Shown in pieces: positions 35,413 to 58,059 of a DNA stretch of 64,000 bases; position 1 is the first letter of the stretch; every line of letters starts with the position of its first letter. A program made the position numbers and the translations under genes. Source of the stretch: Spirochaetaceae bacterium (GTDB taxonomy: Bacteria > Spirochaetota > Spirochaetia > DSM-2461). Below the pieces are notes generated by a model. That model worked only from the letters and a program-made list of their open reading frames with translations, was not told the origin of the DNA and searched no databases. The DNA is taken from positions 256,001-320,000 of the forward strand of contig JAOPTT010000009.1 of the NCBI GenBank assembly GCA_051531975.1, in the 5' to 3' direction.

Positions 35413-35538
35413 CATATATCTAATCTTTAAAATGATCATAATGTATATGCTTTTGATTATCACCTCCATTTCTAAATGACAGTTCCTACTTTAAGATTAA
35501 TAATATAAGAGAATAACTACTTAAAGAGAGGAAAATAA

Positions 35539-36699: not shown

Positions 36700-36710
36700 A
36701 GGGGATAAAA

Positions 36711-37499: not shown

Positions 37500-37501
37500 G
37501 T

Positions 37502-39109: not shown

Positions 39110-39126
39110 CCGGAGATATAACAGGT

Positions 39127-39960
39127 ATGGAAATTGTAAAACATCGGTTTAAAAAGTATTTTCAACCGGTAAAAAGGGACCTTGATTGGGGAATCTATCT
39201 ATTAGGATGTGGAGATTATACAAGCCCTAATATAGAAATGCCTGAAGATGGGCGATATCTTAATGATTATGCTATTGTCTATTTTACTGAGGGAGAGGGT
39301 CTTTTTTATATAGATAAGGAAAACGCTATTCCCTGGTCTACCGGTGATGTTATTTTACTTTTCCCAGGTGTCTGGCATAAATATGTTTCAGAAAATAGTC
39401 AAAATTCAAAACAACTTTGGATTGTATTTAATGGTTCTTATGTCAGGCATCTTCAGAAAAATAATTTTCTTTCAACAAATAATTCTCTTATTCATATTGG
39501 ATTTGATACAGAATTACATAATCTGTTTAATAAAATAGAGACCCTGGCGGAAACTGAATCATTAACTTTCCAAATTGAATCTGGAGCGGAACTTATTAAG
39601 TTATTAGCACGAATTATAAAATTATCCGATAAAAACAAATCTGTACCAATACAACCTGTAATTTGTAAGTCTATAGATTATATTGAAGAAAACCCTGAAA
39701 AAGAGATAGATTTTGAGGACTTTTCAAAATCCAATGGAATAAGTTACATACATTTTCGCCGACAGTTTAAACAGAGTACAGGATTGGCTCCTCTACAGTA
39801 CCAGATGCAGGTCAAAATAAATAAAGCAAAAATACTTTTGGAAACCGATAAATCGGTAAAAGAAGTAGCTTTTGAACTAGGTTTTAAATGTCAGTACTAT
39901 TTCTCAAGAAAATTTAAAGAGAAGACTGGAATACCCCCATCTGAATGGACATATATATAG
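39127..39960 (+). CDS. AraC-family transcriptional regulator
   Basis: LLFPGVWHKY cupin; GFKCQYYFSRKFK HTH. Confidence 0.92.
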   Translation: MEIVKHRFKKYFQPVKRDLDWGIYLLGCGDYTSPNIEMPEDGRYLNDYAIVYFTEGEGLFYIDKENAIPWSTGDVILLFPGVWHKYVSENSQNSKQLWIVFNGSYVRHLQKNNFLSTNNSLIHIGFDTELHNLFNKIETLAETESLTFQIESGAELIKLLARIIKLSDKNKSVPIQPVICKSIDYIEENPEKEIDFEDFSKSNGISYIHFRRQFKQSTGLAPLQYQMQVKINKAKILLETDKSVKEVAFELGFKCQYYFSRKFKEKTGIPPSEWTYI

Positions 39961-39961
39961 T

Positions 39962-40795
39962 TTAAACATTCTCTCCAATATTCATATTACGAAATTTTCC
40001 TGGAGACATTCCTATATATTTTTTAAACTGATTTGAAAATGCATATTGATCTTTATAACCAAGGTCTACCGATATAGCTTTTATAGATAAAGAAGGATTA
40101 TGCAGTAGTCTTTTTGCTTCATTTATACGTTTTAATACACGGTAATGATGCATACTAAATCCTGTTTCATTCTTAAACATCTTTCGGATACTTTCATAAC
40201 CCCCTGGTAGTGGACCTACTAGTTTCTTTAAATCCAGCTTTTTATCAAGATTATCACTAAGCTGTCTATACAATTCCTCCACTAGAGATTCCATGTTATC
40301 AAGGCTAATATTATTGCTTGCTAATTCATTTATAAATAGAATAAAAGATTGAACCTCTATAAGCAGTCTCTTGTAGTTTTTTTCGTTACTATTTTTAAAC
40401 CTGTTTAAAAGAGACTCACATCTTGTTAAGGTCTCGTGGCCAGGAACTGTATGTAATATTGGGGCGTCTGAAATAAAATTAATAGATGTTAAAGTTTTAT
40501 ACAGCTTTTTACCAAAACAGATATAAAATTCACGCCATGGTTCACCATCTTCAACTGTAGTTGTATGTATTACCCCAGGCCTTCTTTGAACAAAGTCTCC
40601 TTTTTGGATGATAGTTCTATTCCCTTCCTCATCAATGTATACACCTTTACCAGAGAGTATGAGGAAACCACCATAATAGTAAAAATAATGTCTCTTAATC
40701 TCCGGTTTTTTAGATAGGAATCCACAGGCAATAACTCCATCTATATGATCATTATTAATTGTTTTATATATCATATCGTAATTAGTTGATTTCAT
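39962..40795 (-). CDS. AraC-family transcriptional regulator
   Basis: GYKDQYAFSNQFKKYIGMSPGKFR; ATG 40795 with GGAG RBS. Confidence 0.92.
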   Translation of the reverse strand: MKSTNYDMIYKTINNDHIDGVIACGFLSKKPEIKRHYFYYYGGFLILSGKGVYIDEEGNRTIIQKGDFVQRRPGVIHTTTVEDGEPWREFYICFGKKLYKTLTSINFISDAPILHTVPGHETLTRCESLLNRFKNSNEKNYKRLLIEVQSFILFINELASNNISLDNMESLVEELYRQLSDNLDKKLDLKKLVGPLPGGYESIRKMFKNETGFSMHHYRVLKRINEAKRLLHNPSLSIKAISVDLGYKDQYAFSNQFKKYIGMSPGKFRNMNIGENV

Positions 40796-40922
40796 TTTCT
40801 CTCCGATACCATTTATTACATTAAGAATACCATTATTGACATTTTTAACTGGCAATTTAGATTTATACTGATATCATATTGTACATCTAAATGTATAATA
40901 AATCATATAAAGAGGTTAAATA

Positions 40923-41990
40923 ATGAATAAAAGAGAGAACTTTCTATCAATGTTACGCCGACAGGGTTATGAATATGCACCTGTAGATCTGGTCCTTTGT
41001 CCTTCACTTCTTGAATCCTATGAAAAGGATATTTCTTCAACAAAGAATTTTGAAGACTATTTTGGATTACCATGGCGTGAAGTTGAAGATGGTAAGATTA
41101 TAGCTGTTGATGATAGCGTATATGAAGAATATTATAAAGATAAATTAAAAGAAGGTAGAACAATAGACTCTTGGGGAGTCGGGCATGAGCCTGGTAGTGA
41201 TGCATGTATGCATATGACATATATGCGACATCCTATGAAAGATTTAACAACAATTGAAGAGTTAGAAAATTATCCATATCCTGATTATTTGAACGGAGAT
41301 TTTAGCCATCAGAAGACACAGATTGACGCCATACATGAGAAAGGTTTAGCTTCATGTGGTAATATGCAGATAACTATATGGGAAGCTTCTTGGTACTTAA
41401 GAAGTATGGAACAGCTTATGATGGATATGATCATGGATAAAGAAAAGGCTGAACTCATAATAGATAAGGTTTTGGAATTGAGTATACATAGAGCTGTTCA
41501 ATATGCGAAAGCAGGTTGTGATATCCTATTTTTTGGTGATGATATTGGTATGCAGTCAAGTATAATGATGAGTGTTGAAATGTATGTTGAATGGTTTAAA
41601 CCAAGATTGACAAAACTGATAGATACAGTTAAAAAAGTTAATCCAAATATCATAATTTTTTATCATTCCTGCGGTTTTGTTGAACCTTTTATACCACATC
41701 TAATTGAGGCTGGAGTAGATGTTCTTAATCCTGTACAACCAGAATGTATGGATTTTGAGAAACTTCATGGGTTATATGGTGATAAAATCTCTTTCCATGG
41801 AACCATTGGAACTCAAACTACTATGCCATTTGGAACACCTGATGAGGTTCGAGAGCTTGTTATTAAAAACTTATCGATTGCAGGAAAAAAGGGTGGTCTA
41901 TTTTGCTCTCCTACACATATGTTAGAACCGGAAGTTCCCTGGGAAAATATTATGGCTTATATTGAAGCTTGTAAATCATTTAAGCCATAA
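40923..41990 (+). CDS. Uroporphyrinogen-decarboxylase/MtaA-CmuA superfamily protein
   Basis: GDDIG, FYHSCG, DVLNPVQPE, GTIGTQ.TMPFGT, PTH. Confidence 0.85.
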   Translation: MNKRENFLSMLRRQGYEYAPVDLVLCPSLLESYEKDISSTKNFEDYFGLPWREVEDGKIIAVDDSVYEEYYKDKLKEGRTIDSWGVGHEPGSDACMHMTYMRHPMKDLTTIEELENYPYPDYLNGDFSHQKTQIDAIHEKGLASCGNMQITIWEASWYLRSMEQLMMDMIMDKEKAELIIDKVLELSIHRAVQYAKAGCDILFFGDDIGMQSSIMMSVEMYVEWFKPRLTKLIDTVKKVNPNIIIFYHSCGFVEPFIPHLIEAGVDVLNPVQPECMDFEKLHGLYGDKISFHGTIGTQTTMPFGTPDEVRELVIKNLSIAGKKGGLFCSPTHMLEPEVPWENIMAYIEACKSFKP

Positions 41991-42062
41991 TATAAAACTG
42001 TCTTTGTAGTGTTCATTGTAATAACATCGGTAATTCGATTAAAGATGTTATTACAAATAGAA

Positions 42063-42875
42063 TTACATCAGTTTTAGAGGTTTAAAATTAGAATCTCCAG
42101 GTCCAGGGTATCTGTATTTACCTTTTGATAATTTTCCAATGTTTATAGTCTTGGTTGGACAATGATTTATACATCTCATACATAAAAAACAGTTCTTATC
42201 AAATTTAACAAATTTTCCAGACACAGTAATATTATTAACAGGACAGATTTTTTCACAATGTCCACATCCTGTACAATCTTTACCTGCAGCTAACTTCTTA
42301 GATAATGATCTCTCAAATGGTCTCATTAAAAATGCAATAAAATTAAATAAAGCAGCAGAAAATTTATTGATATTTATTTGTGAATCCTTTGGTAATGTAT
42401 AATCTCCATTATCAATTTTTATTAAATCTTCAAAAATCAGTTCCACTTCAGGTATATTAGAGAAATCACGATTTAACATTTTTTTAACTATTTTAGAATC
42501 GGGACTTACAAAACTTAAACCATCAGAACCAGGCATTATTATTGACCTTCCACCTATAATGTTTCCATTGTTTTTCTTTATAGTTTTAGCTGTATTATAT
42601 AGTGCTGCGCCAGCAGAATATGCCATGGTAGTAAAGATATAAACCTCTTTCCCCTCTAAGTCCTGGGAAATTATCTGTTTTAATATTGATACTACATTCA
42701 AAGCATAAACTGGAAAGCCTAGATAAATTCTTGAGGAATCCTTAATTTGTGATTTATCATATTTCTCAAAAGGTATCATAGATATATCTTCATGTTTTGA
42801 CCTGATGTCATTAATGATCGATGCTATAAAGTGAGTATTTCCAGTTCCACTAAAATATAATATTGTTGATTTCAA
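42063..42875 (-). CDS. EFR1-family flavodoxin-ferredoxin fusion
   Basis: YFSGTGNT, GFPVY, two 4Fe-4S motifs CTGCGHCEKICP and CFLCMRCINHCP. Confidence 0.9.
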   Translation of the reverse strand: MKSTILYFSGTGNTHFIASIINDIRSKHEDISMIPFEKYDKSQIKDSSRIYLGFPVYALNVVSILKQIISQDLEGKEVYIFTTMAYSAGAALYNTAKTIKKNNGNIIGGRSIIMPGSDGLSFVSPDSKIVKKMLNRDFSNIPEVELIFEDLIKIDNGDYTLPKDSQININKFSAALFNFIAFLMRPFERSLSKKLAAGKDCTGCGHCEKICPVNNITVSGKFVKFDKNCFLCMRCINHCPTKTINIGKLSKGKYRYPGPGDSNFKPLKLM

Positions 42876-42941
42876 TTTTTACCCCATAATATTTTAGAAA
42901 TTATTGTTTCTGTATAAGAATATAATGAAAAATTGGGAAAT

Positions 42942-42977
42942 AAAAAAGCCACTGGTTCATATCATTTCCCAGTGGCT
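42942..42977 (-). terminator. Rho-independent terminator after serA
   Basis: AGCCACTGG...CCAGTGGCT with A-run. Confidence 0.7.
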
Positions 42978-43002
42978 ATAAATTTTATAATGTTTGCTTA
43001 TT

Positions 43003-44160
43003 CTAGATTGCTCTAGCTACAACAACACCAGCTAAAGATTTAACATCGGCTTCTATAACTTTTGCATCTTTATCAGTATTAACAATAGCGTAAGTTAAAT
43101 TACCTCTTGTTTCAGTTATCATATCAGTATATGTGATCCCTGCTTTCTTAAGTGCTTCTGTCATTCCAAAAAGTAATTCTGAATTGTTTTTTGCACAAGC
43201 TGTAATTCTAGGACCATTAACGTCTAAGGTCACGTTAGGGAAGTTCACAGAGTTTAATACATTTCCAGTTTCTAAGTATAAAGAAACTTGGTTAACTACC
43301 ATTTTAGCACAATTCTCTTCAGATTCATTTGTGGAAGCACCTAAATGAGGAATAGGAATAATGTTATCTACATTTACCATTAAAGCATTAGGAAAGTCCG
43401 TAATATATTTTGCAACTTTACCAGATTTAACAGCAGCTACCATATCAACATCGTTAATTAGTCCACCTCTTGCAAAGTTAACAATTCTAACACCATCGAT
43501 ACACTTAGCTAAAAGCTCAGCATTAAACATTGCTTTTGTATCTGCATTTACAGGTAAGTGTAATGATAAATAATCAACCTCTGCAAAAATTGCATCCATA
43601 GAGTCTTTAATTACAATGTTTGATGATAGTTTTGCTTTTGCAGCATCAGAAATAAATGGGTCGTAACCAACAACTTCCATACCTAAAGCGTCACAAGCAT
43701 TGGCAACTAATCCACCAATTGCTCCTAAACCGATAACTCCCATTTTTTTACCAAGAATCTCAGGTCCACCAAAATTAGATTTACCTTTTTCTACCTGTGC
43801 AGGAACATCAGTATCACCATCTTTAAGCTCTTTAGCCCAAACAATAGATTCAAATACAGCACGGGATGACATAAATAGAGCAGTAATAACTAACTCTTTT
43901 ACAGCATTTGCATTTGCACCAGGTGCATTAAATACAACAATACCTTCTTCTGTACATCTGTCTGCTGGTACATTGTTAGTTCCAGCTCCAGCTCTACCAA
44001 TTGCCTTCATTGTTGATGGGAACTTAGTATCATGAAGTTTGTAACTTCTTAAAATGATTCCCTCAGCATCTGTATGGTTTTCATTTATATCGTATTTAGC
44101 TTTATCAAATAGAGATAAACCTTTATCAGAAATCTTATTATATGTCTGTATTTTGTACAT
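43003..44160 (-). CDS. serA: D-3-phosphoglycerate dehydrogenase
   Basis: RAGAGTNNVP, NAPGANANAVKE, GLGAIG, PHLGAST, C-terminal ACT-like domain; follows serC. Confidence 0.92.
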   Translation of the reverse strand: MYKIQTYNKISDKGLSLFDKAKYDINENHTDAEGIILRSYKLHDTKFPSTMKAIGRAGAGTNNVPADRCTEEGIVVFNAPGANANAVKELVITALFMSSRAVFESIVWAKELKDGDTDVPAQVEKGKSNFGGPEILGKKMGVIGLGAIGGLVANACDALGMEVVGYDPFISDAAKAKLSSNIVIKDSMDAIFAEVDYLSLHLPVNADTKAMFNAELLAKCIDGVRIVNFARGGLINDVDMVAAVKSGKVAKYITDFPNALMVNVDNIIPIPHLGASTNESEENCAKMVVNQVSLYLETGNVLNSVNFPNVTLDVNGPRITACAKNNSELLFGMTEALKKAGITYTDMITETRGNLTYAIVNTDKDAKVIEADVKSLAGVVVARAI

Positions 44161-44192: not shown

Positions 44193-45269
44193 TTAGCTAT
44201 TTGCTTTCTCAAAATCAGCCATAACTTTAACTAATTTCTCTACACCCTCTAATGGCATAGCGTTATAGATAGAAGCTCTCATTCCACCAACAGATCTGTG
44301 ACCTTTTAATGTCATTAAATCTTGGGAAGCAGCCTCTTTAATAAATTTAGCATCTAATTCATCGTTACCAGTTACAAAAGGGATATTCATTAAAGATCTA
44401 TCTTCAACTTTTGCAGTTCCTGAGAACATTTTACTGTTATCTAAATAGTTGTATAGTAGGTTAGCTTTAGTTAGGTTATTTTTATAAATACCATCTAATC
44501 CACCCTTAGATTTAATCCAACCTAAAACTTTACCTAAAATATAGATACCATAAGTAGGAGGTGTATTAAACATAGAAGCTGCATCAGCATGTGTTTTATA
44601 CTGCATCATTGTTGGTGTACCTTCAATGTGCTTACCAATTAGGTCATCTCTGATTATTACAAGTGTAACTCCAGCAGGTCCTAAGTTCTTCTGTGCACCA
44701 GCAAAGATAACACCGTAGTCACTTACATTTATAGGCTCTGACATAATGTTTGAAGACATATCTGCAATAATTGGAGTATCTCCAGTATTTGGTAGTTCTA
44801 CAAATCTTGTACCATAAATAGTATTGTTACTAGCAAGATATACATAATCAGCATCGTCTGAAAATTTAAGATCTTTTGGAATATATGAGAAAGTAGCATC
44901 TTCTGATGATGCAATAACATTAGCTTCACCAACTAGTTTAATTTCGGTTACAGCTTTTTTCGTCCAAGCACCTGTGTTAATAACGTCAACTTTACCAGTT
45001 TTGTTCATTAGGTTCATTGGAAGCATTGCAAACTGAGTAGAAGCTCCACCTTGTAAAAATAGCACTTTGTAGTTATCAGGTACGTCCATAACTTCTCTTA
45101 CAAGTTTTTCTGCATTATCATATATGGCTACAAACTCTTTGGATCTGTGACTCATCTCCATTACGGACATTCCCGAGCCTTGGTAATCTAGCATCTCTGA
45201 TGCTGCTTCTTGTAAGACTTCCTGAGGAAGCATTGCAGGTCCTGCGGAAAAATTGAAAACTCTTTTCAT
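44193..45269 (-). CDS. serC: Phosphoserine aminotransferase
   Basis: FNFSAGPAMLP, MEMSHRS, GAQKNLGPAG, GHRSVGGMRASIYNA. Confidence 0.97.
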   Translation of the reverse strand: MKRVFNFSAGPAMLPQEVLQEAASEMLDYQGSGMSVMEMSHRSKEFVAIYDNAEKLVREVMDVPDNYKVLFLQGGASTQFAMLPMNLMNKTGKVDVINTGAWTKKAVTEIKLVGEANVIASSEDATFSYIPKDLKFSDDADYVYLASNNTIYGTRFVELPNTGDTPIIADMSSNIMSEPINVSDYGVIFAGAQKNLGPAGVTLVIIRDDLIGKHIEGTPTMMQYKTHADAASMFNTPPTYGIYILGKVLGWIKSKGGLDGIYKNNLTKANLLYNYLDNSKMFSGTAKVEDRSLMNIPFVTGNDELDAKFIKEAASQDLMTLKGHRSVGGMRASIYNAMPLEGVEKLVKVMADFEKANS

Positions 45270-45282
45270 AATTTTACTCTCC

Positions 45283-45327
45283 TTGGTTGCTTAGCTGAGC
45301 GGGATTGTATTAACAATCCGACCGGCT
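45283..45327. mobile_element. 45-bp hairpin micro-element, copy A (rex-serC spacer)
   Basis: TTGGTTGCTTAGCTGAGCG-GGATTGT-atta-ACAATCC-GACCGGCT; arms resemble the insertion at 57402-57442. Confidence 0.5.
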
Positions 45328-45980
45328 TAAGTTTGTTTGTTTTCATATTGTGATATCAACGCAGATAAAATATTAAATTCACCTGCTATAAATATATTTC
45401 GTATAAAAACATCATCTCTGTTTATCTCTATTAAAACAGGGCTGAAGTTAATAATTCCTTTAATTCCACATGCTATAAGGTCATTTGCGACTTTTCTTGC
45501 ACTGGCTTGTGGTACAGTTATCATACCAATTTTAATCTGTTCTTTTTCAATTATATCTTTCATTTTGTCCATAGGGTATATGGTCATATCTGTTCTATCG
45601 TTTATAAGTTTAGCATCATTATTATCAAACCCTGCAACTACTGTATATTCATTTGAATAAAATCCATTTTTAGTTGTAATTACCGTTCCTAATCTACCCA
45701 TTCCAACTATACACGCTTTTTTGTATTTATTGAAACCAAGATACTCTGCAATTATGTTTTTTAAGTTAATAATATCGTAACCATTACCGTTACCAGCTTG
45801 TCTTAAAAAGCTAATATCTTTTCTGATTGTATGGGAGGGAACTCCAAGAAGTTTACCAATTTCGGCTGAAAATATCCGTTCTTGTCCTTCCTTTTGTAGG
45901 TTTTCTAAAAGGACAAACAGAGTTGATAACCTAACAATAGTAGGTTTTGGTATGATAAGTCTGTCTAGCTCATTTTTCAT
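45327..45980 (-). CDS. rex: Redox-sensing transcriptional repressor Rex
   Basis: IPKPTIVRL, TIRKDIS, GY, IVGMGRLG, TVP, GIINFSP; ATG 45980 with GGAG RBS. Confidence 0.92.
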   Translation of the reverse strand: MKNELDRLIIPKPTIVRLSTLFVLLENLQKEGQERIFSAEIGKLLGVPSHTIRKDISFLRQAGNGNGYDIINLKNIIAEYLGFNKYKKACIVGMGRLGTVITTKNGFYSNEYTVVAGFDNNDAKLINDRTDMTIYPMDKMKDIIEKEQIKIGMITVPQASARKVANDLIACGIKGIINFSPVLIEINRDDVFIRNIFIAGEFNILSALISQYENKQT

Positions 45981-45988
45981 ATCAACTC

Positions 45989-46006
45989 CAGTGAATAATT
46001 TCACAT
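45989..46006. promoter_or_regulatory. Rex operator (autoregulatory)
   Basis: ATGTGAA-atta-TTCACTG (minus) vs consensus TTGTGAA-N4-TTCACAA, between a TTGACA promoter and the rex RBS. Confidence 0.7.
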
Positions 46007-46077
46007 TATTTAATAATATAAAAATATATCGATTCCTGTCAATTGCAAATATACAAATATAATATAAATGAATTTTT

Positions 46078-46322
46078 AGGACTAAAATAATGTTTTGTTA
46101 TAATAGGTATCGGCAGGGCTTTTAATTTTATTTTTCATGGAATTTTCAAAATTACGGGATAAATTATATTTATTTAGCAAATTATTAATGTTTTGATAAA
46201 CTCCTGTTTTATATGATTGGTCCATTTTTGAACTATTATATAAAGCACATAATTCTGGATATAATAGAGGGCATTCCTTGTTAATGAAGAGCCGATTTAC
46301 AAATAATTTCAGAAATATCCAT
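46078..46322 (-). pseudogene. Probable internally deleted radical-SAM (SPL-like) gene remnant
   Basis: MDISEIICKSALH* joined to a C-terminal-like stretch YPELCALY...YKTGVYQNINNLLNKYNL...MKNKLK; family recognised from memory only. Confidence 0.35.
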
Positions 46323-46327
46323 ATATC

Positions 46328-47212
46328 TTATTTATAAGCTTTGGATATCTCTGTTGCAATATTTTTTAAGTTTAAAAGGTAGTCCTGGTGTAGAGGGTTT
46401 AATGAAGTTACTCTTCCACCAATTGCGTCGGCTATAACCTTCGCACTTTTTATAGAGAACTCAGGTTGAACTACAATTATTTTAGCTCCATCTGCTATAG
46501 CTTCAGATATTATTCTTTCTAAACCTTTAGGTGTAGGTTCTTTTCCTCCGGTCTCTACGGCTTCCTGAATTAATCCAAACTCATCTAAGAAGTATCCAAA
46601 TGATGGGTGATAAACAAATACTACGTTTCCTTTGTATGGATCTAGAATCTGATGTAATTCCTCTGTTATAGAGTTTAGCTGTTTTATTAGTATATTAAAC
46701 CTAGAAGTATAATATTCTTCTCCTTCAGGATCAGATTTAATTAGATTTATTAATATGTTTTGAGCTATTATTTTTCCTAAAACTGGAGATAACCAAGTAT
46801 GTGGGTCTAATTCTTCATTTTCTGGGTGTTCCTCGACGGAGTGATTGTGACCTTCTACTATTTCCCTTTTTTTTATACCTATAGATGAATCTATGACCTT
46901 AAGATTTTTTAAAGTATTCAATATTTTACCTAAGTAGATATTTTCAAATGGAACACCAATAGTAAATAGTATATCGGCGGTACTAAGTTTAACTATTTGA
47001 TTTGGTGTTGGTTGATATGTTGCTGGATTTTTACCTGGTCCAACTAGAACACTGCAATCTACCCGCTCTCCACCAATCTGTTCCACAAAAAACTTCTGAG
47101 GAATAATGCTTGTAAATACTTTTAAACTATTTGATTCTTCTTCGATATTTGTTGTACCAAATAGTGAATATATTGAAATAACTGATAATATTAGATATGT
47201 AATTCGTTTCAT
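46328..47212 (-). CDS. znuA: Zinc/metal ABC transporter binding protein
   Basis: His-rich loop GHNHSVEEH, DPHTWLSP, YHPSFGYF. Confidence 0.88.
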   Translation of the reverse strand: MKRITYLILSVISIYSLFGTTNIEEESNSLKVFTSIIPQKFFVEQIGGERVDCSVLVGPGKNPATYQPTPNQIVKLSTADILFTIGVPFENIYLGKILNTLKNLKVIDSSIGIKKREIVEGHNHSVEEHPENEELDPHTWLSPVLGKIIAQNILINLIKSDPEGEEYYTSRFNILIKQLNSITEELHQILDPYKGNVVFVYHPSFGYFLDEFGLIQEAVETGGKEPTPKGLERIISEAIADGAKIIVVQPEFSIKSAKVIADAIGGRVTSLNPLHQDYLLNLKNIATEISKAYK

Positions 47213-47315
47213 GATTTTAAAAGTAATATTTGTTTATTTAATAGTCAACGCTACATAAAGCTTTCATAAGTTATAAAAAGTTGCACCATGTGAAAGTCTG
47301 GACTATTATTATCTT

Positions 47316-50276
47316 ATGCTTAAAATTAATAGATTTAATAATATATATGGAAGAGATACAGAAAAAGAGATCTTAATAAAAACTTTTAAGAAGTCAATCA
47401 ATAATATGCTACAGATAATATATGTTTCAGGACCCATTGGCTCAGGAAAAACTTCAGTAGTTAATGATATACAGAAAGAGATACAAGAGTGTAATGGTAT
47501 TTTTTTAAAAGGACAGTACGATCAACATAATATAAATTTACCATTTAACAGTTTATCAAAAGCATTTTACAATTATTTTGATACAATTTTGGTAAGAGAT
47601 GAAGAGAAAGCAAAAGAAATTTGTAACTCTATAGAAGTTGAGCTTGGGGATAATCTTCAATTTGTTTTACAGGCATTCCCAGATATTGGAACCTTTTTTA
47701 AAAACAGAGATGCCTCAGTAGGTCTTCCTATAAAAGAACAGGAGAGTATATTAATATCAAGTTGTATAACTTTTTTTAAAATTATTGGAGATTTAGGTGG
47801 ACCTATATTTTTATTCTATGATAATTTTCAGTGGGCAGATAATAGCTCAATAGAGTTACTCCAGCTATTGTTTAAATCTATTGATCTAAAAAATATAACA
47901 ATTGTTTGCGCTTTCAGAGGGATCGAATCAAATGAAAAACTAAGTGCCCTAATCAATTCTAATAAGAACAGCAAAAATGTTACATCTTTACCAATTAGTC
48001 CAATAGATTCAGATACTATAATGAAGATTTTAATCGAAACGTTTGATAATGATAATCCAGAAATTAAACCGTTATCAGACTTTATAATGAGAAAAACTAG
48101 GGGGAATCCTCTTCAAATTCATAATATTTTAAGAATACTTGTTAAGGATAATTTAATTAAACAGTACATTAATGATAATTGGAATTGGTCTTTATCGGAT
48201 ATTGAAAAATATGATATTGGAAAGAGCTTAGAAGATAATTTTTATCATGATTTTGAAGATCTTTCAGATTCGAAAAAAAAGTGTTTAGAATACGCCGCTT
48301 GTATTGGGGACAGCTTTTCAATTCAGGAGTTATTTCTATTTGTCGATAAAAACTTAAGCTTAAGAGATGATCTGGTTGAATTGATGTCAGATGGTTATAT
48401 AGTCTCTAGTAATCTAAGTGCTAGACTATTAAGTTATCCTAATATTGAAGTTAATTGTATTGGAGCTGGGAAACCTGTAGTATTAAGTTTCCTGCATGAT
48501 TCTATTTATAAAACTTGTCTAGGATCTTTATCTAAGGAGACAAAACAAGAGGTTCATTTGAAGCTAGGACTTCATTACCTAGAAAAAAGTCTATTACAAA
48601 AATCTTTTAGTATTAAAAGTGCTCTTCAATTTATATTATGCGAAGAAACTATTCCTAAGAGTTATAAAAAGCAGCTCTTAGATTTATATCTTGTGGCCGG
48701 TTCCCAGTGTCTAAAGACAGGAGCTTATGATCTAGGATTAAAGCTATCCCTAGAAGCAAAAAAAATATTATCTAAAGACTTCTCTCTGTCGGAATATCCA
48801 GATATTGCTAGAGATGTATATTTGAACTTAATGAAATCATACTACTTAAAGGATGAGATCCAGTTAGCTGAAGAACTGTCAGTTTCCCTTGTTGATATGA
48901 GTATTGGGCAGATTAAAAAGGCAGAAATATATAAAGAGCAAATGTCATGTTATTTATATCTAGGAAAGTTAAAAGAGTGTTTATCAAAAGGTCATAAAGC
49001 ACTTTCTATATTAAATTATCATTTTGATACAGATCCATCTATGTTTAAATTTATTCAAAAACTAATTTGGACTAACATTAAATTAAAACCACTTAAGACT
49101 AGAGATCTTTTATACAATGTGTCTGGGAAAGATAAAAGAGTTGAGTTAATTATTAATATCCTTGGAGGATTTATTGCTCCAGCATTTATCGCAGGAGAGT
49201 CTTATCTATTTTCTGTGGCATCGTTAAGTCAGATTCTTTTAACACTTAAACATGGGAATTATAAGGAGTCCGGTTGTTCATATAGTAGTTATGCTCTTTT
49301 ATTAAGTGGTTTAGGGAATTATAAAAAAGCGGCGCACTATTCTGAACTAGCAATAAAACTAAATGAGACTGGAGGTTCCAGTTTCTGGACTCCCTTAATT
49401 GATTCTATTAATATGTTATTTGTTGCCCCATGGAATAAGAGGTGGGAAGAGTTACCAGATCTTTCAAAAAAAGCGATGACTTCTTCTAAGCAAATTGGAG
49501 AGAAGTTTATATTGGCTAATCATTATAGTTTTGTAAATCAGTGGAACCCACATATAACTTTGACAAATGCAATAAAAGAGGGTGATTCATATCTAGAACT
49601 AATTACTGACTTAAACCAAGAAGGTCCATATTGGGGAGCAAAAGTTGTATACCAACGATGGATGAATTTAACTGGTCAACTCTCAGATAATTTAACTTTA
49701 GACTCATATTCTTTTAATGCCAAAGAGGTTCTAAAAAAACTATCTGAGATTAATTATATTTCAGGAATTGCAGTTTATCATATACAGATGATGACAATAT
49801 TATATCATCGTGGGCAGTATGAAAAAGCATATGATTGTTTTTTAGATTGTAATAAGGTTGTTTCTACATTAGCCGGGTCGGCCTATATATTCGATTATAC
49901 ATTATATGGTTTTCTTTTAAATGCAGCACTATATAGACAAAGTTCAGACAGAAAAATAAAAAGAAGTAATTTTAAGAGTATGAACAAACTAAGTCGGCGT
50001 ATGGATAAATGGGCTAGTATTAACCCAGATAATTTTAACTATTATAAGATACTTTTTGATGCAGAACGATGTTTTTCTAAAGGTAAAACAAATAGAGCCC
50101 AAACTTTATATAAAGAAAGTCAGTATTTTGTAGAATCTAGTATAAATAATAGAGATAAAGGCATTGTTCTAGAAGCTGCTAGTAGATTTTATATGAATAT
50201 AAATCATGAAGATACTGCCACTAAATTAGAAATTGAATCTAAAGGATATTATAAAGAGTGGGGTTATATAAAATAG
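47316..50276 (+). CDS. Stand-alone AAA_16/STAND-like ATPase with helical C-terminal region
   Basis: IYGRDTE, Walker A GPIGSGKT, DNFQWAD, TRGNP, AACIG, FLHD; no kinase or output domain. Confidence 0.8.
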   Translation: MLKINRFNNIYGRDTEKEILIKTFKKSINNMLQIIYVSGPIGSGKTSVVNDIQKEIQECNGIFLKGQYDQHNINLPFNSLSKAFYNYFDTILVRDEEKAKEICNSIEVELGDNLQFVLQAFPDIGTFFKNRDASVGLPIKEQESILISSCITFFKIIGDLGGPIFLFYDNFQWADNSSIELLQLLFKSIDLKNITIVCAFRGIESNEKLSALINSNKNSKNVTSLPISPIDSDTIMKILIETFDNDNPEIKPLSDFIMRKTRGNPLQIHNILRILVKDNLIKQYINDNWNWSLSDIEKYDIGKSLEDNFYHDFEDLSDSKKKCLEYAACIGDSFSIQELFLFVDKNLSLRDDLVELMSDGYIVSSNLSARLLSYPNIEVNCIGAGKPVVLSFLHDSIYKTCLGSLSKETKQEVHLKLGLHYLEKSLLQKSFSIKSALQFILCEETIPKSYKKQLLDLYLVAGSQCLKTGAYDLGLKLSLEAKKILSKDFSLSEYPDIARDVYLNLMKSYYLKDEIQLAEELSVSLVDMSIGQIKKAEIYKEQMSCYLYLGKLKECLSKGHKALSILNYHFDTDPSMFKFIQKLIWTNIKLKPLKTRDLLYNVSGKDKRVELIINILGGFIAPAFIAGESYLFSVASLSQILLTLKHGNYKESGCSYSSYALLLSGLGNYKKAAHYSELAIKLNETGGSSFWTPLIDSINMLFVAPWNKRWEELPDLSKKAMTSSKQIGEKFILANHYSFVNQWNPHITLTNAIKEGDSYLELITDLNQEGPYWGAKVVYQRWMNLTGQLSDNLTLDSYSFNAKEVLKKLSEINYISGIAVYHIQMMTILYHRGQYEKAYDCFLDCNKVVSTLAGSAYIFDYTLYGFLLNAALYRQSSDRKIKRSNFKSMNKLSRRMDKWASINPDNFNYYKILFDAERCFSKGKTNRAQTLYKESQYFVESSINNRDKGIVLEAASRFYMNINHEDTATKLEIESKGYYKEWGYIK

Positions 50277-50283
50277 TTAAAAT

Positions 50284-50306
50284 AAAGCCCCATATTATGG
50301 GGCTTA
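50284..50306. terminator. Bidirectional terminator
   Basis: AAGCCCCATA-t-TATGGGGCTT between convergent genes. Confidence 0.75.
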
Positions 50307-50311
50307 TATAT

Positions 50312-52090
50312 TTACTCTTTCTCGACTGGTAATTTAATCTGAAGGCTTAATTCTTCAACTTGTATAGGCTCAACTTCCGCAGGACTTTCATCCATAGGAG
50401 ACATGGCCATATTGTTTTTAGGGAAAGGAATAACCTCTCTAATTGAGTCTTCTCCAGCCATAATCATAACTAGTCTATCTAAACCTGGAGCAATTCCACC
50501 GTGGGGAGGAGCACCAAATTTAAATGATTCAAGTAGGAAACCAAACTTTGACATAGCTTCTTCTTCCTGGATTCCAACAATAGAGAATATTCTTTTTTGG
50601 ATCTCTGGGTCATGAACTCTAATAGAACCAGATGCTAACTCGTAACCGTTAAGAACTAAGTCGTATAGGTCACCTTTTACTTCACCAGGATTTTCTTCCA
50701 TTGTTTCTAAATATTGATTTTGTGGCATACTAAATAGGTGGTGACAAGCTTCCCAGTTTCCATCATCATTTTTTTCAAATAGTGGGAAATCTACAATCCA
50801 ACAGAAGTTAAAAGTTTTAGGATCAAATAGATTTCTATCAATACCTAATTGTTTTCTAACAGCACCTAAAGATGTTACTGAAGTTTTCCAATCAGAACCC
50901 ATTAGTAGGATTAAGTCATTCTCTTTTGCACCTAAGCCGTCAGTTATTTCAGTAAATTGGTTATTATAAAACTTTGAAACTCCACCATCAAAAGAATCGG
51001 CTTTAACTTTCATCCAAGCTAAACCTTTAGCTCCATGTTGTTTTGCAACTTCTTCTAACTGTGTTATTTTTTTTCTTGAATAATCAGGGGCAGCATCAGG
51101 TACAACGATTGCTCTAACTGCTCCATTTGTATCTAATACAGATTTAAATACTCCAAAGTCAGAACCTGGTACATAAGGTGCGAAATCTTGAAGTTTCATA
51201 TCGAATCTTAATTCTGGTTTATCAGAACCATAGGTATTCATTGCATCCATATAAGTTAATCTTTGGAACTGTGATGGTAGTGTTATTCCCATTGTTTTAT
51301 TAAATATAAAACCCATCATCTCTTCTGTCATTTTATAGATATCTTCAGCTGAAACAAAACTCTGTTCAATATCAATTTGTGTAAACTCTAATTGTCTATC
51401 ACCCCTTGCATCTTCATCACGGTAACATCTAGCAATCTGGAAGTATTTATCCATGTTAGAAACCATTAATATCTGCTTATATAACTGTGGTGATTGAGGT
51501 AGTGCAAAAAACTTTCCTGGGTGCACTCTAGAAGGTACTAAAAAGTCTCTAGCTCCCTCTGGAGTCGCTTTTATTAAAGTTGGAGTCTCAATCTCCATAA
51601 AACCTTGTCCATTTAAGAACTCTCTTGTTGCAAATGTTACGTCGGATCTAAGTTTCATTCTCTTTTGCATACCATCGGATCTTAAATCCAGGTATCTATA
51701 TTTTAATCTAAGTGTCTCGTTAGCTTTTGATTCATCTTCTATCATAAAAGGTAGAGTTTCACACTTATTTAGAATTGTAATAACTTTTGCAGACAGTTCA
51801 ATTTCACCTGTAGCCATGTCAGGATTAATCATGGAGTCAGGTCTTTTTCTTACTATACCTTTAATTGCAACACAGTATTCAAATTTTAGTTCAGAAGCTA
51901 CATCTAAAATATCCTGGTTAGCATCTTCATCTATAACAACCTGTGTTACACCATATTTATCTCTAAGGTTTATAAAGTGTACACCACCATGATTCCGGTT
52001 TTTATGTACCCAACCGTTTAATATAATCTCTTTACCATCGAATTCTTTTGTTAGTTCTCCGCATGTTACGGTTCTCTGCATCTCTTTCAT
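50312..52090 (-). CDS. aspS: Aspartyl-tRNA synthetase
   Basis: RLKYRYLDLR, TPEGARDF, LPQSPQLYKQ, RDED, GAPPHGGIAPGLDR. Confidence 0.97.
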   Translation of the reverse strand: MKEMQRTVTCGELTKEFDGKEIILNGWVHKNRNHGGVHFINLRDKYGVTQVVIDEDANQDILDVASELKFEYCVAIKGIVRKRPDSMINPDMATGEIELSAKVITILNKCETLPFMIEDESKANETLRLKYRYLDLRSDGMQKRMKLRSDVTFATREFLNGQGFMEIETPTLIKATPEGARDFLVPSRVHPGKFFALPQSPQLYKQILMVSNMDKYFQIARCYRDEDARGDRQLEFTQIDIEQSFVSAEDIYKMTEEMMGFIFNKTMGITLPSQFQRLTYMDAMNTYGSDKPELRFDMKLQDFAPYVPGSDFGVFKSVLDTNGAVRAIVVPDAAPDYSRKKITQLEEVAKQHGAKGLAWMKVKADSFDGGVSKFYNNQFTEITDGLGAKENDLILLMGSDWKTSVTSLGAVRKQLGIDRNLFDPKTFNFCWIVDFPLFEKNDDGNWEACHHLFSMPQNQYLETMEENPGEVKGDLYDLVLNGYELASGSIRVHDPEIQKRIFSIVGIQEEEAMSKFGFLLESFKFGAPPHGGIAPGLDRLVMIMAGEDSIREVIPFPKNNMAMSPMDESPAEVEPIQVEELSLQIKLPVEKE

Positions 52091-52244
52091 AAACAAGAGA
52101 ATAGCATTTTTAATTTAGTTTGTTAACTATTTATTCCTATAGGTATTAGTCAAACTTTAGTAAATAACAGATTTTTTTTATGTTTTTGTAATATATTTAG
52201 TTGTCATATCTATAAATAATTATTATTATGTCTTCATACAATAC

Positions 52245-52271
52245 TAATTAGGACTAAATTAGTCCGAATTA
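52245..52271. promoter_or_regulatory. IscR/Rrf2-type operator upstream of nifSU
   Basis: TAATTAGGACTAA-A-TTAGTCCGAATTA (1 mismatch); core GACT-AAATT-AGTC fits the IscR type-1 pattern. Confidence 0.7.
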
Positions 52272-52282
52272 CTTAGGAGTAG

Positions 52283-54419
<2,137 letters not shown>

Positions 54420-54425
54420 TAACAG

Positions 54426-54453
54426 ACCCTGCTTTTGCAGGGGTTATTTTTTT
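54426..54453 (+). terminator. Rho-independent terminator after nifU
   Basis: CCCTGC-tttt-GCAGGG followed by T-tract. Confidence 0.7.
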
Positions 54454-54595
54454 ATAAGTATATTATTTATTCAATTTCATATCTAATAATATCTTCCACT
54501 TTTGGAACTGTGTTGTATGTCTTCACCCAATTACCATTTTGTTTGACTTCATATATTTTAAAAACAAATGGTATTCCTTTTGCAATAATAGTGTT

Positions 54596-54711
54596 GGAAG
54601 GTCTTATTTCATTATTATTTAAAGCTATCAACTTTAGTTTTAAATGGGCTTAAATAGTGAAAAATTCCATAAACAAAATCAGTCCCGTGTGTTAAATTTG
54701 GAGATATTGTT
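54596..54711. repeat. ~116-bp direct repeat, copy 1
   Basis: GGAAGGTCTTATTTCATTA...AAATGGGCTTAAATAGTGAAAA...CAAAATCAGTCCCGT...TTTGGAGATATTGTT; near-identical to 56605-56721. Confidence 0.9.
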
Positions 54712-54779
54712 TTTAGGAAGCTTTAAATAATCAAATATGTTAGTGTTCTACTTTGTATGTAGCAGTATTATCAATTATG

Positions 54780-55991
54780 TTATTTAACTTCAAATCTTAT
54801 ATTTTCTAGAAGAAAATCATATAGATTTATATGTGTGATACCATCTTTTGATAGATCAATTTTATCCATGGTAATCAAATATTTTGGATATTGATCATTT
54901 ATTTTTAGAAGTGCATTCATCTCCCTTGCATATGTTCTTTCATCTAAAGCCGTCAGACTAACCTGAAAATATAATCTTTTATCTCCTTTAATAGCAATAA
55001 AATCTACCTCGGATGACATGTTTTTCCCAACAGTTACTTCATAACCTAATCGAAGTAACTGAAGATATACAATATTTTCTATAACATGTCCTAAATTACC
55101 ACTGCGATATCCTATGAGCCTGTTTCTAAGACCTGTATCAACGACATAGTATTTACCATTAGTTTTAAGACGTTCTTTTCCCCTAATATCATATCTCTCA
55201 CATTGATAAAGCATATGGGCATCACACATTAACTGTAGATAATTATCTACTGTGTCTGAGGTGATTTTATGTCCATGAGATATCATTGTATTTTTGATTG
55301 CATTGGCAGATGTATTATTACCAATATTTTCAAAAACAAACTTTGCTACTTTATAGAAAGCTCCTTCATCTCGAATCCTACCTCTTAGAATAATATCTCT
55401 AGTAAATATTGAATCAAATAATCCTGAAAGAATTGCCTCTACCAGTTCCTGCCCATTAGCTAAACTAACAGCGGGAAAAGATCCTACTAGAAGATACTCG
55501 TTAAAATGCTTCTCAACATTTTGTTCACTATATGATTTAAATTCTAAAAACTCTTTAAATGATAAGGGCAGAACTTTAATCTCTATATACCTACCTGAAA
55601 GATATGTAAGATGCTCCCCTGAAAACATTCTTGAATTTGAGCCAGTAACATATATATCAGCATTAAAACTTACTCTTAAACTATTAATAACTTTCGCCCA
55701 ATCATAGAGCTCTTGTACTTCATCAATTAGTAAATAGATTCTACTACTATCTTTCACTTTACCTTTTATGTAGTCATGTATGGATTTCTCATCTTTTAAA
55801 TCATCATTTAGATATTTTTCATAATTTATTTCAATGATCTGGCTTTCTTCTACACTCTGATCTATAAGATATTCTTTAAACAGAACAAGTAGAGATGATT
55901 TCCCTGATCGTCTAACACCAGTTATCACTTTAACAAAATCATTATCTTTATACTGAACCAGTTTATCTGTATATCTTGATCTCTTAATCAT
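54780..55991 (-). CDS. ATP-binding protein, AAA_14 + DUF4143 family
   Basis: ITGVRRSGKS, LIDEVQ, VTGSNS, KYYVVDTGL, EVDFIA...QV. Confidence 0.9.
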   Translation of the reverse strand: MIKRSRYTDKLVQYKDNDFVKVITGVRRSGKSSLLVLFKEYLIDQSVEESQIIEINYEKYLNDDLKDEKSIHDYIKGKVKDSSRIYLLIDEVQELYDWAKVINSLRVSFNADIYVTGSNSRMFSGEHLTYLSGRYIEIKVLPLSFKEFLEFKSYSEQNVEKHFNEYLLVGSFPAVSLANGQELVEAILSGLFDSIFTRDIILRGRIRDEGAFYKVAKFVFENIGNNTSANAIKNTMISHGHKITSDTVDNYLQLMCDAHMLYQCERYDIRGKERLKTNGKYYVVDTGLRNRLIGYRSGNLGHVIENIVYLQLLRLGYEVTVGKNMSSEVDFIAIKGDKRLYFQVSLTALDERTYAREMNALLKINDQYPKYLITMDKIDLSKDGITHINLYDFLLENIRFEVK

Positions 55992-56246
55992 AAGTACCTC
56001 ATTATTCTAACTATAACTTCAAAATCGACAGAAATCAATTATATTACGATCAGTAGTCGTAAAAAGAAATAGTATTGTCGTTTTTCATAGTAAAAACTAA
56101 GTATTTAATAATAAGATTAAGCAATGTTCAGGCCCAAATATATGGATATATTGCTGTAACAGTATAACAACAGAATTTTATTGGTTAAACATTTGATACT
56201 TAATGTTGATAATCCCTTACTTATAAGGAATTATCATTATTAAAAG

Positions 56247-56604
56247 CTATACAGCTACGTCGATAACCTCTTCTTCTTTTACCACTACAGGAATTGGTTT
56301 AAACTCCACATGTTCAGCTACAACTTTTATCCTTGAATGAGGATTCTCAGATTCATCCACCCACCTGTCCTGTTTTAATCTTCCAACAACTCTAACACCT
56401 CTACCCTTGCAAAGATGTTTAAGGCAGCTCTCGGCTATTGTCGACCAAACTTCTATATCAAAGTAGGATACCTCTTTTACATAATCATCATCTTTCTTAT
56501 AACTTCTGTTAACAGCTATAGTAAAGTTACAGATAATAGTATCCTGGGGGGGTTCTTCTCTCTACAGGGTCTTTAACTAAATTTCCCTCTAACAACATAG
56601 AGTC
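56247..56604 (-). pseudogene. ssb: Single-stranded DNA-binding protein, frameshifted and probably 5'-clipped
   Basis: DSMLLEGNLVKDP...CNFTIAVNR...SYFDIEVW...KGRGVRVVGRLKQDRW...VAEHVEFKP; extra base in G7 run at 56546-56552; absent from the ORF track. Confidence 0.85.
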
Positions 56605-56721
56605 GGAAGGTCTTATTTCATTATTTTTTAGAAGCTATCAAATTTAGTAAAAAATGGGCTTAAATAGTGAAAATTTCCATAAACAAAATCAGTCCCGTCT
56701 TTTTAATTTGGAGATATTGTT
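56605..56721. repeat. ~117-bp direct repeat, copy 2
   Basis: Near-identical to 54596-54711; abuts the clipped 5' end of ssb. Confidence 0.9.
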
Positions 56722-56973
56722 GCAATTTAAATATTATGCAATTGTCAGTCCCCAAACACTCCTACAAATAGTAGTTATTACAACATATTGATTATGAAAT
56801 ATTTTCATAAATAGATCTCCATATTATTTTTTATATATTAATTCAAAAAGGTGTATTTGATACGTCTGTACAGTTAGTAATATTTTACATTTTATTATTC
56901 CTGTTCCATATAATTAAAGAATCTATTGTGAATAACATATCATAAATATGTCCAGTAAACTGGTGGAATTCCG

Positions 56974-57866
56974 TTATATAAGTTTTTTCAACTCTTCTAT
57001 AGAAAAACCAGTGACTTTAGAAACAAAATCTAGTTCAGATCCTGCATTTAGAAGATTTCTAGCGATTTATTCCTTACCTTGATCTCTAGCATACTCCAAA
57101 GCTCACCTATCAGAAGCCACATCTTCTAAATATTTATTATATGCTCTCTGCTCTTTTGGAGTCATGGATATGTAGTCCAGCTTTTCACTCATCTCTTTTA
57201 TTCCCTTGGATTCAAATTCGTCCTCGACTCTGTGATTCTTTATGGAATAGATCCACTCATCTAAGGAGTCTTTTACCCTATTGTTAAAAATAGAGATGGA
57301 TATAACAAAGTACTCAGGAAAGATATTAATCTAATCTCTACTATTATTATAACCAACTAAGAAGTTACTGTCTATATTTATAGGTTCTCTACTGTGTAAT
57401 CTAGGCTGCATAGGCGAGCAGTAAACTTGTTTACGACCAGCTCAGAGAATTCTGTTTTACCATGATAGACATAATCTGAATGGGAATTACTACTTTTAGC
57501 TTCTACATCAAAATAGATTAGGCTTACAGAGTAGACTTTATTAACATAGGAATAATCCTCTCCAGATTTTATATTATCTGAAATATCCTTACTTGTTCCA
57601 AATAGTAACCTTTTAAAGTAGTTTTTTTCAGGAGCATACTGTATCTCTATTATCACATGTTCCCCTGAAGAGTTTTCTGCAATTAGATCTACCCTGTTAT
57701 ACTTAATATCCCGAGCATCCTGATTCCCCTCGCTCTCTAGAATATTAACAACTTTTATTTCTTCACCTAAAAGTGCTAATAAAAATCCTTCCAGTACTAC
57801 ATAGTTTACTTTATCCCTCAGGATATACTTTATTGCCCAATCAAAACTTACAATTTCTCTACTCAT
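56974..57866 (-). pseudogene. Rpn-family PD-(D/E)XK nuclease (recombination-promoting nuclease/putative transposase) pseudogene
   Basis: SFDWAIK, LESE, NRVD, IIEIQ, YHGKTEF, IFPEY, LDEWIY, C-terminal IARNLLNAG...SKVTGFSIEE; broken by a 41-bp insertion, stops and further frameshifts. Confidence 0.85.
57402..57442. mobile_element. 41-bp hairpin micro-element, copy B (inserted in Rpn gene)
   Basis: TAGGCTGCATAGGCGAGCA-GTAAAC-tt-GTTTAC-GACCAGCT; excision restores the reading frame EF-S-G-L-H. Confidence 0.65.
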
Positions 57867-58059
57867 ACTAGGTTTATAGTGGTTCGTATCATATAAATTC
57901 AATTTAAAATCGATATATCTGGCTAAATTGATAACTAATTATATATCTTCAGAAAGCTGTATGTATGAAATTCAGTGCGTAATAATGGTTATTTGACTAA
58001 AGAACATTGGAATACTATTATACTGGATGGAACCCTGGAAGACGATCTTGTAAAAAGAC

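Follow-up and report, generated by a model that had tools for sequence, protein, structure and literature searches.

A mobile element of about 43 nucleotides, akin to repetitive extragenic palindromes, at gene starts of spirochaetes

Two copies of a structured repeat and their genomic setting

The window analysed here is a stretch of 64,000 nucleotides from a Spirochaetaceae genome (GenBank assembly GCA_051531975.1, contig JAOPTT010000009.1, positions 256,001 to 320,000). The genome, labelled G000 below, comprises 5.46 Mb in 29 contigs, to which C-numbers refer. The genes rex and serC lie in the window on the minus strand, and the whole gap from the rex stop codon to the Shine-Dalgarno (SD) site of serC is occupied by a small hairpin-forming repeat (copy A). 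The rex stop codon (45327-45329, minus strand) shares one base with the end of the repeat. The sequence adjoining the repeat, CTCTCCT, is the complement of the serC ribosome-binding region. A second copy (copy B) sits within a PDDEXK_2 (Rpn-like) pseudogene. A sequence-only reading of the window, made without database searches, had described both as a mobile micro-element with conserved arms and covarying stems. Its transcription of the two copies is identical to the sequence, and a recount gave the same arm identities (13/19 on the left, 7/8 on the right). The pattern GAGCR-N14-24-GACCRGCT matches the window twice against 0.00 matches expected from 100 dinucleotide-preserving shuffles. The matches are not a product of chance.

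The repeat had been thought to be present twice, which was a large underestimate. A loose scan of the full genome turned up dozens of copies, and 25 units were aligned (A1). A covariance model (R1) recovers 36 units at about 25 loci in G000 at E up to 1. Many of these loci are head-to-tail arrays of 2-4 units with a period of 40-42 nt.

A covarying fold with an invariant internal loop

Units of about 43 nt share one architecture, in which an unpaired 5' tail (GGWTGCAT) is followed by a first helix (P1), an internal loop and a second helix (P2). P1 has 3-4 bp and its two sides covary (GGC/GCC, GCC/GGC, CCC/GGG, TGC/GCA, GTC/GAC, TCC/GGA). The internal loop is asymmetric and invariant (GAGCAG / CGACCAG), and P2 is a hairpin of 5-7 bp with a sequence that is free to vary. 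Across families, conservation of the unpaired bases is strict. In alignment A1, 93.4% of cells are paired and none of 500 shuffles reached the observed covariation score. An alignment of 80 distinct units from relatives (A3) is 95.1% paired, again with 0/500 shuffles reaching the score, though A3 was fitted to the model and hence leans towards the structure. Sliding the partner registers lowers pairing to 31-45% in A1 and to 27-49% overall. Both alignments thus bear out the conserved arms and covarying stems described from the window alone, and the covariation resembles that of an RNA. The P1 register of copy A is shifted by one relative to the family consensus. A further pairing of TGGT in the 5' tail with ACCA was discarded as unsupported, since an invariant partner faces the variable position 5.

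The strand on which the copies were read, plus in the window, is referred to here as the folding strand. On this strand, the seven core pairs include 16 G.T wobbles against 2 A.C mismatches. The folding strand is antisense to both neighbouring genes at most loci, so the fold would matter in single-stranded DNA rather than in RNA. Hairpin loops include C(GNA)G triloops (13/69 distinct hairpins) and CTTG (11/69), which at most suggests DNA.

Empty sites and the absence of target duplication

The rex-serC junction is occupied in some close relatives and empty in others. In two congeners of G000 (G002 and G003) the element is absent and the junction reads ...AAACTTTAGGAGAG...ATG, and G001 carries a diverged copy with a loop nearly the same as that of copy A. 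Contigs spanning the junction without the element were also found in two metagenome runs, namely X1, which may be the source sample (55 differences over 416 bases, ~87% identity), and X2 from another study (23 differences in 341 bases, ~93% identity). In these segments, G001-G003 reach only 86-89% identity to G000. The empty alleles of X1 and X2 together with this low identity imply either a precise loss or two entries at the same spot. Among the sequencing runs examined, the window stretch was present only in X1, and an RNA run (X4) gave one partial contig. The sequence-only reading had also predicted what would be left after removal of copy A. The compact empty junction exists as proposed (G002, G003, X1 and X2), but rex does not stop at the proposed TAG and continues as ACT TTA GGA GAG TAA.

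Copy B provides a second case. Deleting its 41 nt restores the peptide EFSGLH, as had been predicted, and the resulting join matches two paralogues in G000 (C2:525778-526505 and C7:120306-120947), which are without exactly those 41 nt. The host gene is still broken after the removal by an in-frame TAG 26 codons beyond the insertion. A further unit lies in another fragment of the same nuclease gene family, in the opposite orientation (C2:527655-527698). The RNase P RNA shows the same polymorphism within a single genus. A unit in sense orientation occupies the P3 terminal loop in G014 and G018, with none in G005 and G010 of the same genus, and the RNA is ~50 nt longer in G018 (L227) and G014 (L228) than at L225 and L226. 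The P3 terminal loop of RNase P RNA tolerates a structured insertion.

No target duplication was found at rex-serC or in the nuclease paralogues, in agreement with the sequence-only reading, nor at any other of the empty and filled junctions compared. Judged by these sequence comparisons, the empty sites prove insertion of the element, which evidently comes and goes between close relatives. The check for empty sites that had been proposed for rex-serC and Rpn orthologues was positive at rex-serC and, in paralogues, for the nuclease gene, and RNase P RNA provided a further case. With 36 units and with empty alleles at four kinds of site, the description as a tiny, non-coding and non-autonomous inserted element has held up.

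Spread among spirochaetes

The proposed covariance-model search found the family in the genome itself and in its relatives. Matches occur in 21 of 41 relatives (own genome included), with 17/24 in the same family. A sample of the class has matches in 25/151 genomes, several with at least about 40 units, and a sample of the phylum in 4/151 at E up to 1e-6, the own genome being counted among the 151. The highest numbers of units per genome elsewhere are at least 38-42. A resemblance to short hairpin repeats of Bacteroidota, suggested in the sequence-only reading, found no support. G000 encodes three homologues of FlaA, which matched in none of 14 control genomes and which we take to be specific to spirochaetes. 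Given FlaA and the fact that the relatives form one class, the group is taken as spirochaetes.

None of the Rfam families matches the element in 20 loci searched on both strands at E up to 1, and the sole match (V_AS7, 31 bits against a gathering score of 90) is unrelated and lies away from the repeat. Two 14-mers taken from the motif, in DNA and in RNA spelling, are absent from the papers searched, and two 12-mers match unrelated papers only, of which the 10 listed of 19 are studies of eukaryotic cells. The available text of three surveys of repetitive extragenic palindromes (REPs) does not mention the motif (PMC3733652, PMC12306157, bioRxiv 10.64898/2026.09.22.753630), and their supplements could list it.

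Some units depart from the standard form. In composite units (Table 1), the 3' half is replaced by, or leads into, a conserved hairpin CGCAAAGCATGYCTTTGCG and a second GAGC-hairpin-ACC module. Units at C11:72392, C7:229972 and C9:171131 have an extra hairpin of ~25 nt inside P2.

Placement at ribosome-binding sites and tRNA starts

The position of the element relative to genes follows a sharp rule. In G000, 21/25 loci adjoin an SD-like sequence and a start codon on the opposite strand, counting open frames of at least 40 codons within 21 nt of the element 5' end. Most loci have both neighbouring genes on the opposite strand (23/26 for the 3'-side neighbour), and the gap between them is often wholly filled. 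In the flanks of 97 units that stand alone or first in an array, taken from several genomes, position -4 is C in 73 and position -3 a pyrimidine in 85. CC[CT] is found within the last 5 nt of the flank in 68/97 units, compared with 6.5% of random 5-mers. The same holds in a sample from a distant family (A4, 36 first units), where CTCC, TCCC or TTCC precedes 33/36 units by 1-3 nt and the complement of a start codon lies 4-11 nt beyond in 29/36. Copy B is an exception, as it follows AATC. The element is hence placed 1-3 nt after a CTCC or CCY pyrimidine motif on the same strand. The empty sites identify the CTCC motif as part of the target and not of the element. The motif is complementary both to the SD sequence and to the GG-rich start of tRNA genes, which explains why copies on the antisense strand gather exactly at position -1 of tRNA starts and ribosome-binding sites. 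Such copies do no harm. In G010, the element adjoins the 5' ends of tRNA genes on the opposite strand. The 3' end of the element itself (...GCC(T/C)) repeats the target motif, and array junctions have the same spacing of 1-2 nt. A recreated target at the 3' end would explain the head-to-tail arrays.

Further insertions lie outside gene starts. In G019, units are found in 23S-5S spacers, in group II introns and in the loops of a palindromic repeat (CCCCTCTCC...GGAGAGGGG). The element lies antisense in the 5' portion of group II introns, namely at three loci of G019 (L148, L149 and L151) and in ten near-identical 2.15-kb introns of G086 (L207-L216). The introns of G086 are in minus orientation up to 1.87 Mb and in plus orientation from 1.96 Mb onwards, which resembles a switch between replichores. 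The strand switch of the ten identical copies of the element follows from their location inside the 2.15-kb intron.

The palindromic repeat that hosts the element in its loops is a second, GC-rich family of the approximate form CCCCTCTCC-loop-GGAGAGGGG, often found after AACCCTCACCCC. Genomes with this second family hold several Y1 genes of ~170 aa, which may be its partners.

The location just ahead of start codons could also reflect a function in the messenger strand, with a hairpin ~10 nt upstream of the SD site stabilising or processing the downstream cistron or tuning translation, and spread being secondary. The fixed distance to the SD site in G000 and in the distant family would fit such a role, as would the unpaired tail, which keeps the SD site free. 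Where the whole gap between same-strand genes is filled, the element must be co-transcribed. However, the downstream genes have no common function. Those in G000 include aroA, pth, argS, thrS, serC, rsgA, a sulfatase and a glycoside hydrolase (names read from the translations), an unrelated set that does not form a regulon, and a riboswitch or leader was rejected for the same reason. The element is also present or absent at the same operon junction among close relatives, it resides in a pseudogene, group II introns, an rRNA spacer and the RNase P P3 loop, its wobbles favour the other strand by 16 to 2, and Rfam holds no matching family. We consider a primary function in messenger RNA unlikely, if not far-fetched.

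A functional RNA module on the folding strand itself, such as a protein-binding motif or the end of an antisense RNA, would suit the wobbles and the strict conservation of unpaired bases across families. It is also in line with the sense copies found in the 23S-5S spacers of G019 and, in G014 and G018, in the P3 loop of RNase P RNA. Yet both neighbours lie on the other strand at most loci, so that transcription of the folding strand is not expected, the P3 insertion is absent in sister species, and there is again no Rfam match. An RNA role on the folding strand is highly improbable.

Comparison with known mobile repeats

Small repeats of the REP kind are common, and the spirochaete element is set apart by its placement, its fold and the absence of a cognate transposase. 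Its likeness to REPs, bacterial interspersed mosaic elements (BIMEs) and the system of REP doublets (REPINs) with REP-associated tyrosine transposases (RAYTs) is extensive. All are short, non-coding, extragenic hairpin repeats in tens of copies that are sometimes tandem, carry a single-stranded tag by the stem, leave no target duplication and vary in copy number between relatives. As a short imperfect palindrome that is non-coding and has many extragenic copies, the element matches the general description of a REP. According to the available text of PMC3733652, REP palindromes carry a conserved GTAG or CGTC tetranucleotide tag at one end. The invariant bases of the element are instead GGWTGCAT, GAGCAG and CGACCAG, with neither GTAG nor CGTC at a fixed place. 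All arrays are head-to-tail, unlike the inverted doublets of REPINs. The element differs further in the invariant asymmetric internal loop between two covarying helices and in its location at gene starts on the antisense strand, whereas REPs follow stop codons.

Elements of the IS200/IS605 insertion sequence (IS) group, together with palindrome-associated transposable elements (PATEs), share other traits. They have no inverted terminal repeats, cause no duplication, leave seamless empty sites and insert directly 3' of a short specific motif on the folding strand, as seen here at rex-serC, in the nuclease paralogues and in the CCY preference, which has exceptions. IS200/IS605 elements have two subterminal hairpins and a TnpA, whereas a single hairpin fills the 43 nt here and G000 encodes neither Y1_Tnp nor TnpB.

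Like the attC sites of integrons, the element would be recognised as a folded single strand, and it shares with them an outline of paired ends, unpaired spacer and variable tip. In both, the folding strand is antisense to the gene that follows, whose ribosome-binding site lies a short way downstream, and integron integrases are present in many carrier genomes. The element is, in contrast, less than half as long as the attC sites of G000 and is scattered by housekeeping genes outside the cassette array. In attC sites, inverse core sites at both ends pair mutually, and the attC sites of G000 have ends of this kind (...ATAAC ... GTTAT...). In the element, the 5' tail (GGWTGCAT) stays unpaired and has no complementarity to the 3' end. 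Miniature inverted-repeat transposable elements (MITEs) of the DDE type have terminal inverted repeats and target-site duplications, and the element has neither. The palindromic elements of Rickettsia are likewise small repeats and also enter genes for proteins and RNAs where an insertion is tolerated. They come from another phylum, have two to three times the length and are often maintained in frame within proteins.

By analogy, the element appears to work most like REPs and single-strand elements of the IS200/IS605 type, yet it lacks the tag, the doublets and the cognate Y1 transposase that define them. It also lacks the defining features of attC sites and of DDE-type MITEs.

How the element might move and which enzyme might move it

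The element is a real REP-like mobile element. On balance, we think it probable that copies A and B belong to a family of REP-like, non-autonomous mobile DNA of ~43 nt in spirochaetes, which moves as a folded single strand through an enzyme acting in trans. The element would fold as single-stranded DNA, and a nuclease or recombinase would read the invariant unpaired bases and cut after CCY. The cut might be made in the manner of HUH enzymes at the ends of REPs and IS200/IS605 elements.

Several observations weigh against this interpretation. On the folding strand, the trend of the core pairs is reversed at the outermost P1 pair (24 A.C versus 7 G.T), although this may not be a real pair. Wobbles in A4 are too few to tell (2 G.T versus 1 A.C). 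Folding energies of single DNA sequences are unremarkable (z +0.1 to -2.5), and minimum-energy structures of single sequences differ from the fold supported by covariation. The excess on the C-rich strand (18/26) is confounded with gene direction, and the homogeneous arrays could come from slippage instead of self-targeting. The search for a mobilising enzyme did not find one. Y1_Tnp (PF01797) had no match in G000 or in seven other carriers (G001, G005, G010, G014, G018, G086 and G110), three of which are complete genomes, and the repeat was within 1.5 kb at none of 22 Y1 loci in relatives. G000 further had no match to IS110 or TnpB domains, no multi-copy insertion sequence in its assembly and only one broken fragment of a reverse transcriptase. 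The genome is apparently a metagenome-derived draft in 29 contigs, possibly originating from a marine-metagenome run, so a repeated or plasmid-borne gene could be missing. In G000, no inverted pair of units flanks a gene. A search for Y2/IS91 enzymes is uninformative, as the control matched nowhere either, and the PDDEXK_2/Rpn family was rejected as a mobiliser because it does not co-vary with the element.

The sequence-only reading had named an HUH/RAYT-like enzyme as mobiliser, for which the Y1 searches found no candidate. The element could still be an ordinary derivative of REPs, REPINs or IS200/IS605 whose Y1 HUH transposase (RAYT or TnpA) was lost, is unassembled or acts from elsewhere. 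The lack of terminal inverted repeats and of duplication, the insertion 3' of a short motif and the conserved single-stranded tag beside the hairpin all agree with such an origin, and Y1 genes are present in the copy-richest genomes (G081, G105, G148, G167, G019 and G022). RAYT genes are flanked by their REPs, which makes the eight carriers without Y1 and the 0/22 loci difficult to accommodate. The absence of invariant GTAG or CGTC tags and of inverted doublets also argues against it. An ordinary Y1-driven element seems distinctly improbable.

A tyrosine recombinase had also been suggested, and here the outcome is divided. An integron integrase, an enzyme that acts on folded single strands, is encoded in G000 (C8:31744-32685, minus strand) with 387 bits to TIGR02249, well above the curated cut-off of 265 bits. 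This chromosomal enzyme could mobilise the element as a minimal, non-canonical attC-like substrate. Integrases above the cut-off are also found in G005, G010, G019 and G086, in 22/41 relatives and in 11/16 genomes with at least 8 units. The attC-like outline and junctions without duplication fit this mechanism, and four units lie within 26 kb of intI in G019. However, integrase and element do not track each other. Among the 41 relatives, 13 have both, 8 the element without the integrase and 9 the integrase without the element. No integrase was found in G105 (at least 38 units) or in G303 (18 units, 97% complete). The attC sites of G000 are ~105-110 nt long and unrelated in sequence, this genome has no unit in the 20 kb to each side of intI, attC core sites are absent from the element, and the G019 units near intI lie within group II introns. 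Mobilisation by the integron integrase has a slim chance of being correct. In the chromosomal integron of G000, the integrase gene is followed at C8 ~34,500-43,400 by same-strand open frames with at least five attC-like sites between them (...ATAAC ... GTTAT...).

A more far-reaching extension of REP-like movement as a folded single strand is that such transposition operates spirochaete-wide without an HUH transposase. The mobiliser would be an enzyme that has so far had no link to elements of this type, perhaps the integron integrase on a minimal non-attC fold, and the target would be the SD complement, so that gene starts would be tagged genome-wide. We regard this combination as quite unlikely.

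Few repeats follow a placement rule as sharp as the antisense strand of a ribosome-binding site or tRNA 5' end. Given that several complete carrier genomes hold no recognisable cognate transposase, the element provides a tractable case for a new mobilising enzyme or for a new substrate class of a known one. The element marks gene starts and reveals where group II introns, rRNA spacers and RNase P RNA tolerate insertions of 43 nt. In practical terms, it breaks draft assemblies and can mislead the annotation of operon junctions in spirochaetes.

Features of the window and neighbouring genes

Table 1. Coordinates of the two copies, their neighbouring genes and related repeats (window positions unless a contig, locus or genome is given).
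Feature	Position	Strand	Details
Copy A	45283..45327	+ (folding strand)	Model match G000:C9:301283-301329, E 4.4e-8; empty alleles
Copy A, parts	P1 45293-45296 with 45324-45327	+	5' tail TT-GGTTGCTT; loop GAGCG / GACC
Copy A, P2 hairpin	45302..45319	+	GGATTGT / ATTA / ACAATCC; alignment A1
Copy B	57402..57442	+ (folding strand)	Model match G000:C9:313402-313444, E 4.3e-10; 41-nt paralogue gap
Copy B, parts	P1 57413-57415 with 57440-57442; P2 57421-57434	+	
serC ribosome-binding region	45270..45282	-	AAGGAGAGTAAAATT ahead of ATG at 45269
serC (phosphoserine transaminase)	44193..45269	-	NCBIfam NF003764, 536 bits; TIGR01364, 506 bits
rex (redox-sensing repressor)	45327..46004	-	NCBIfam Rex models, 166 bits; Pfam Put_DNA-bind_N and CoA_binding
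PDDEXK_2 (Rpn-like; PD-(D/E)XK) pseudogene	57100..57902	-	Pfam PF12784, E 6.7e-20
Composite units	G000 C7:33343-33382, C4:42584-42625, C2:357548-357590, C13:217048-217150; G001 L031		
Second palindromic family	L140-L147, L155, L164, L168, L188, L193		Genomes G019, G022, G014, G005

The serC product is 81-83% identical within the genus and only 43-49% identical to SerC of other genera in its own family. A search of named genomes gave mostly Clostridia-like matches, with 58-66% identity to contigs labelled as Clostridia. These values suggest horizontal acquisition. The same search was of no use as a source of empty sites, as it returned only matches of 58-66% identity.

Compared with the paralogue at C2:525778-526505, the PDDEXK_2 pseudogene lacks 3 nt. 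From a reading by eye, the short contigs C26 and C29 seem to encode fragments of Rpn/YhgA-like nucleases, and this nuclease family may be partly responsible for breaks in the assembly.

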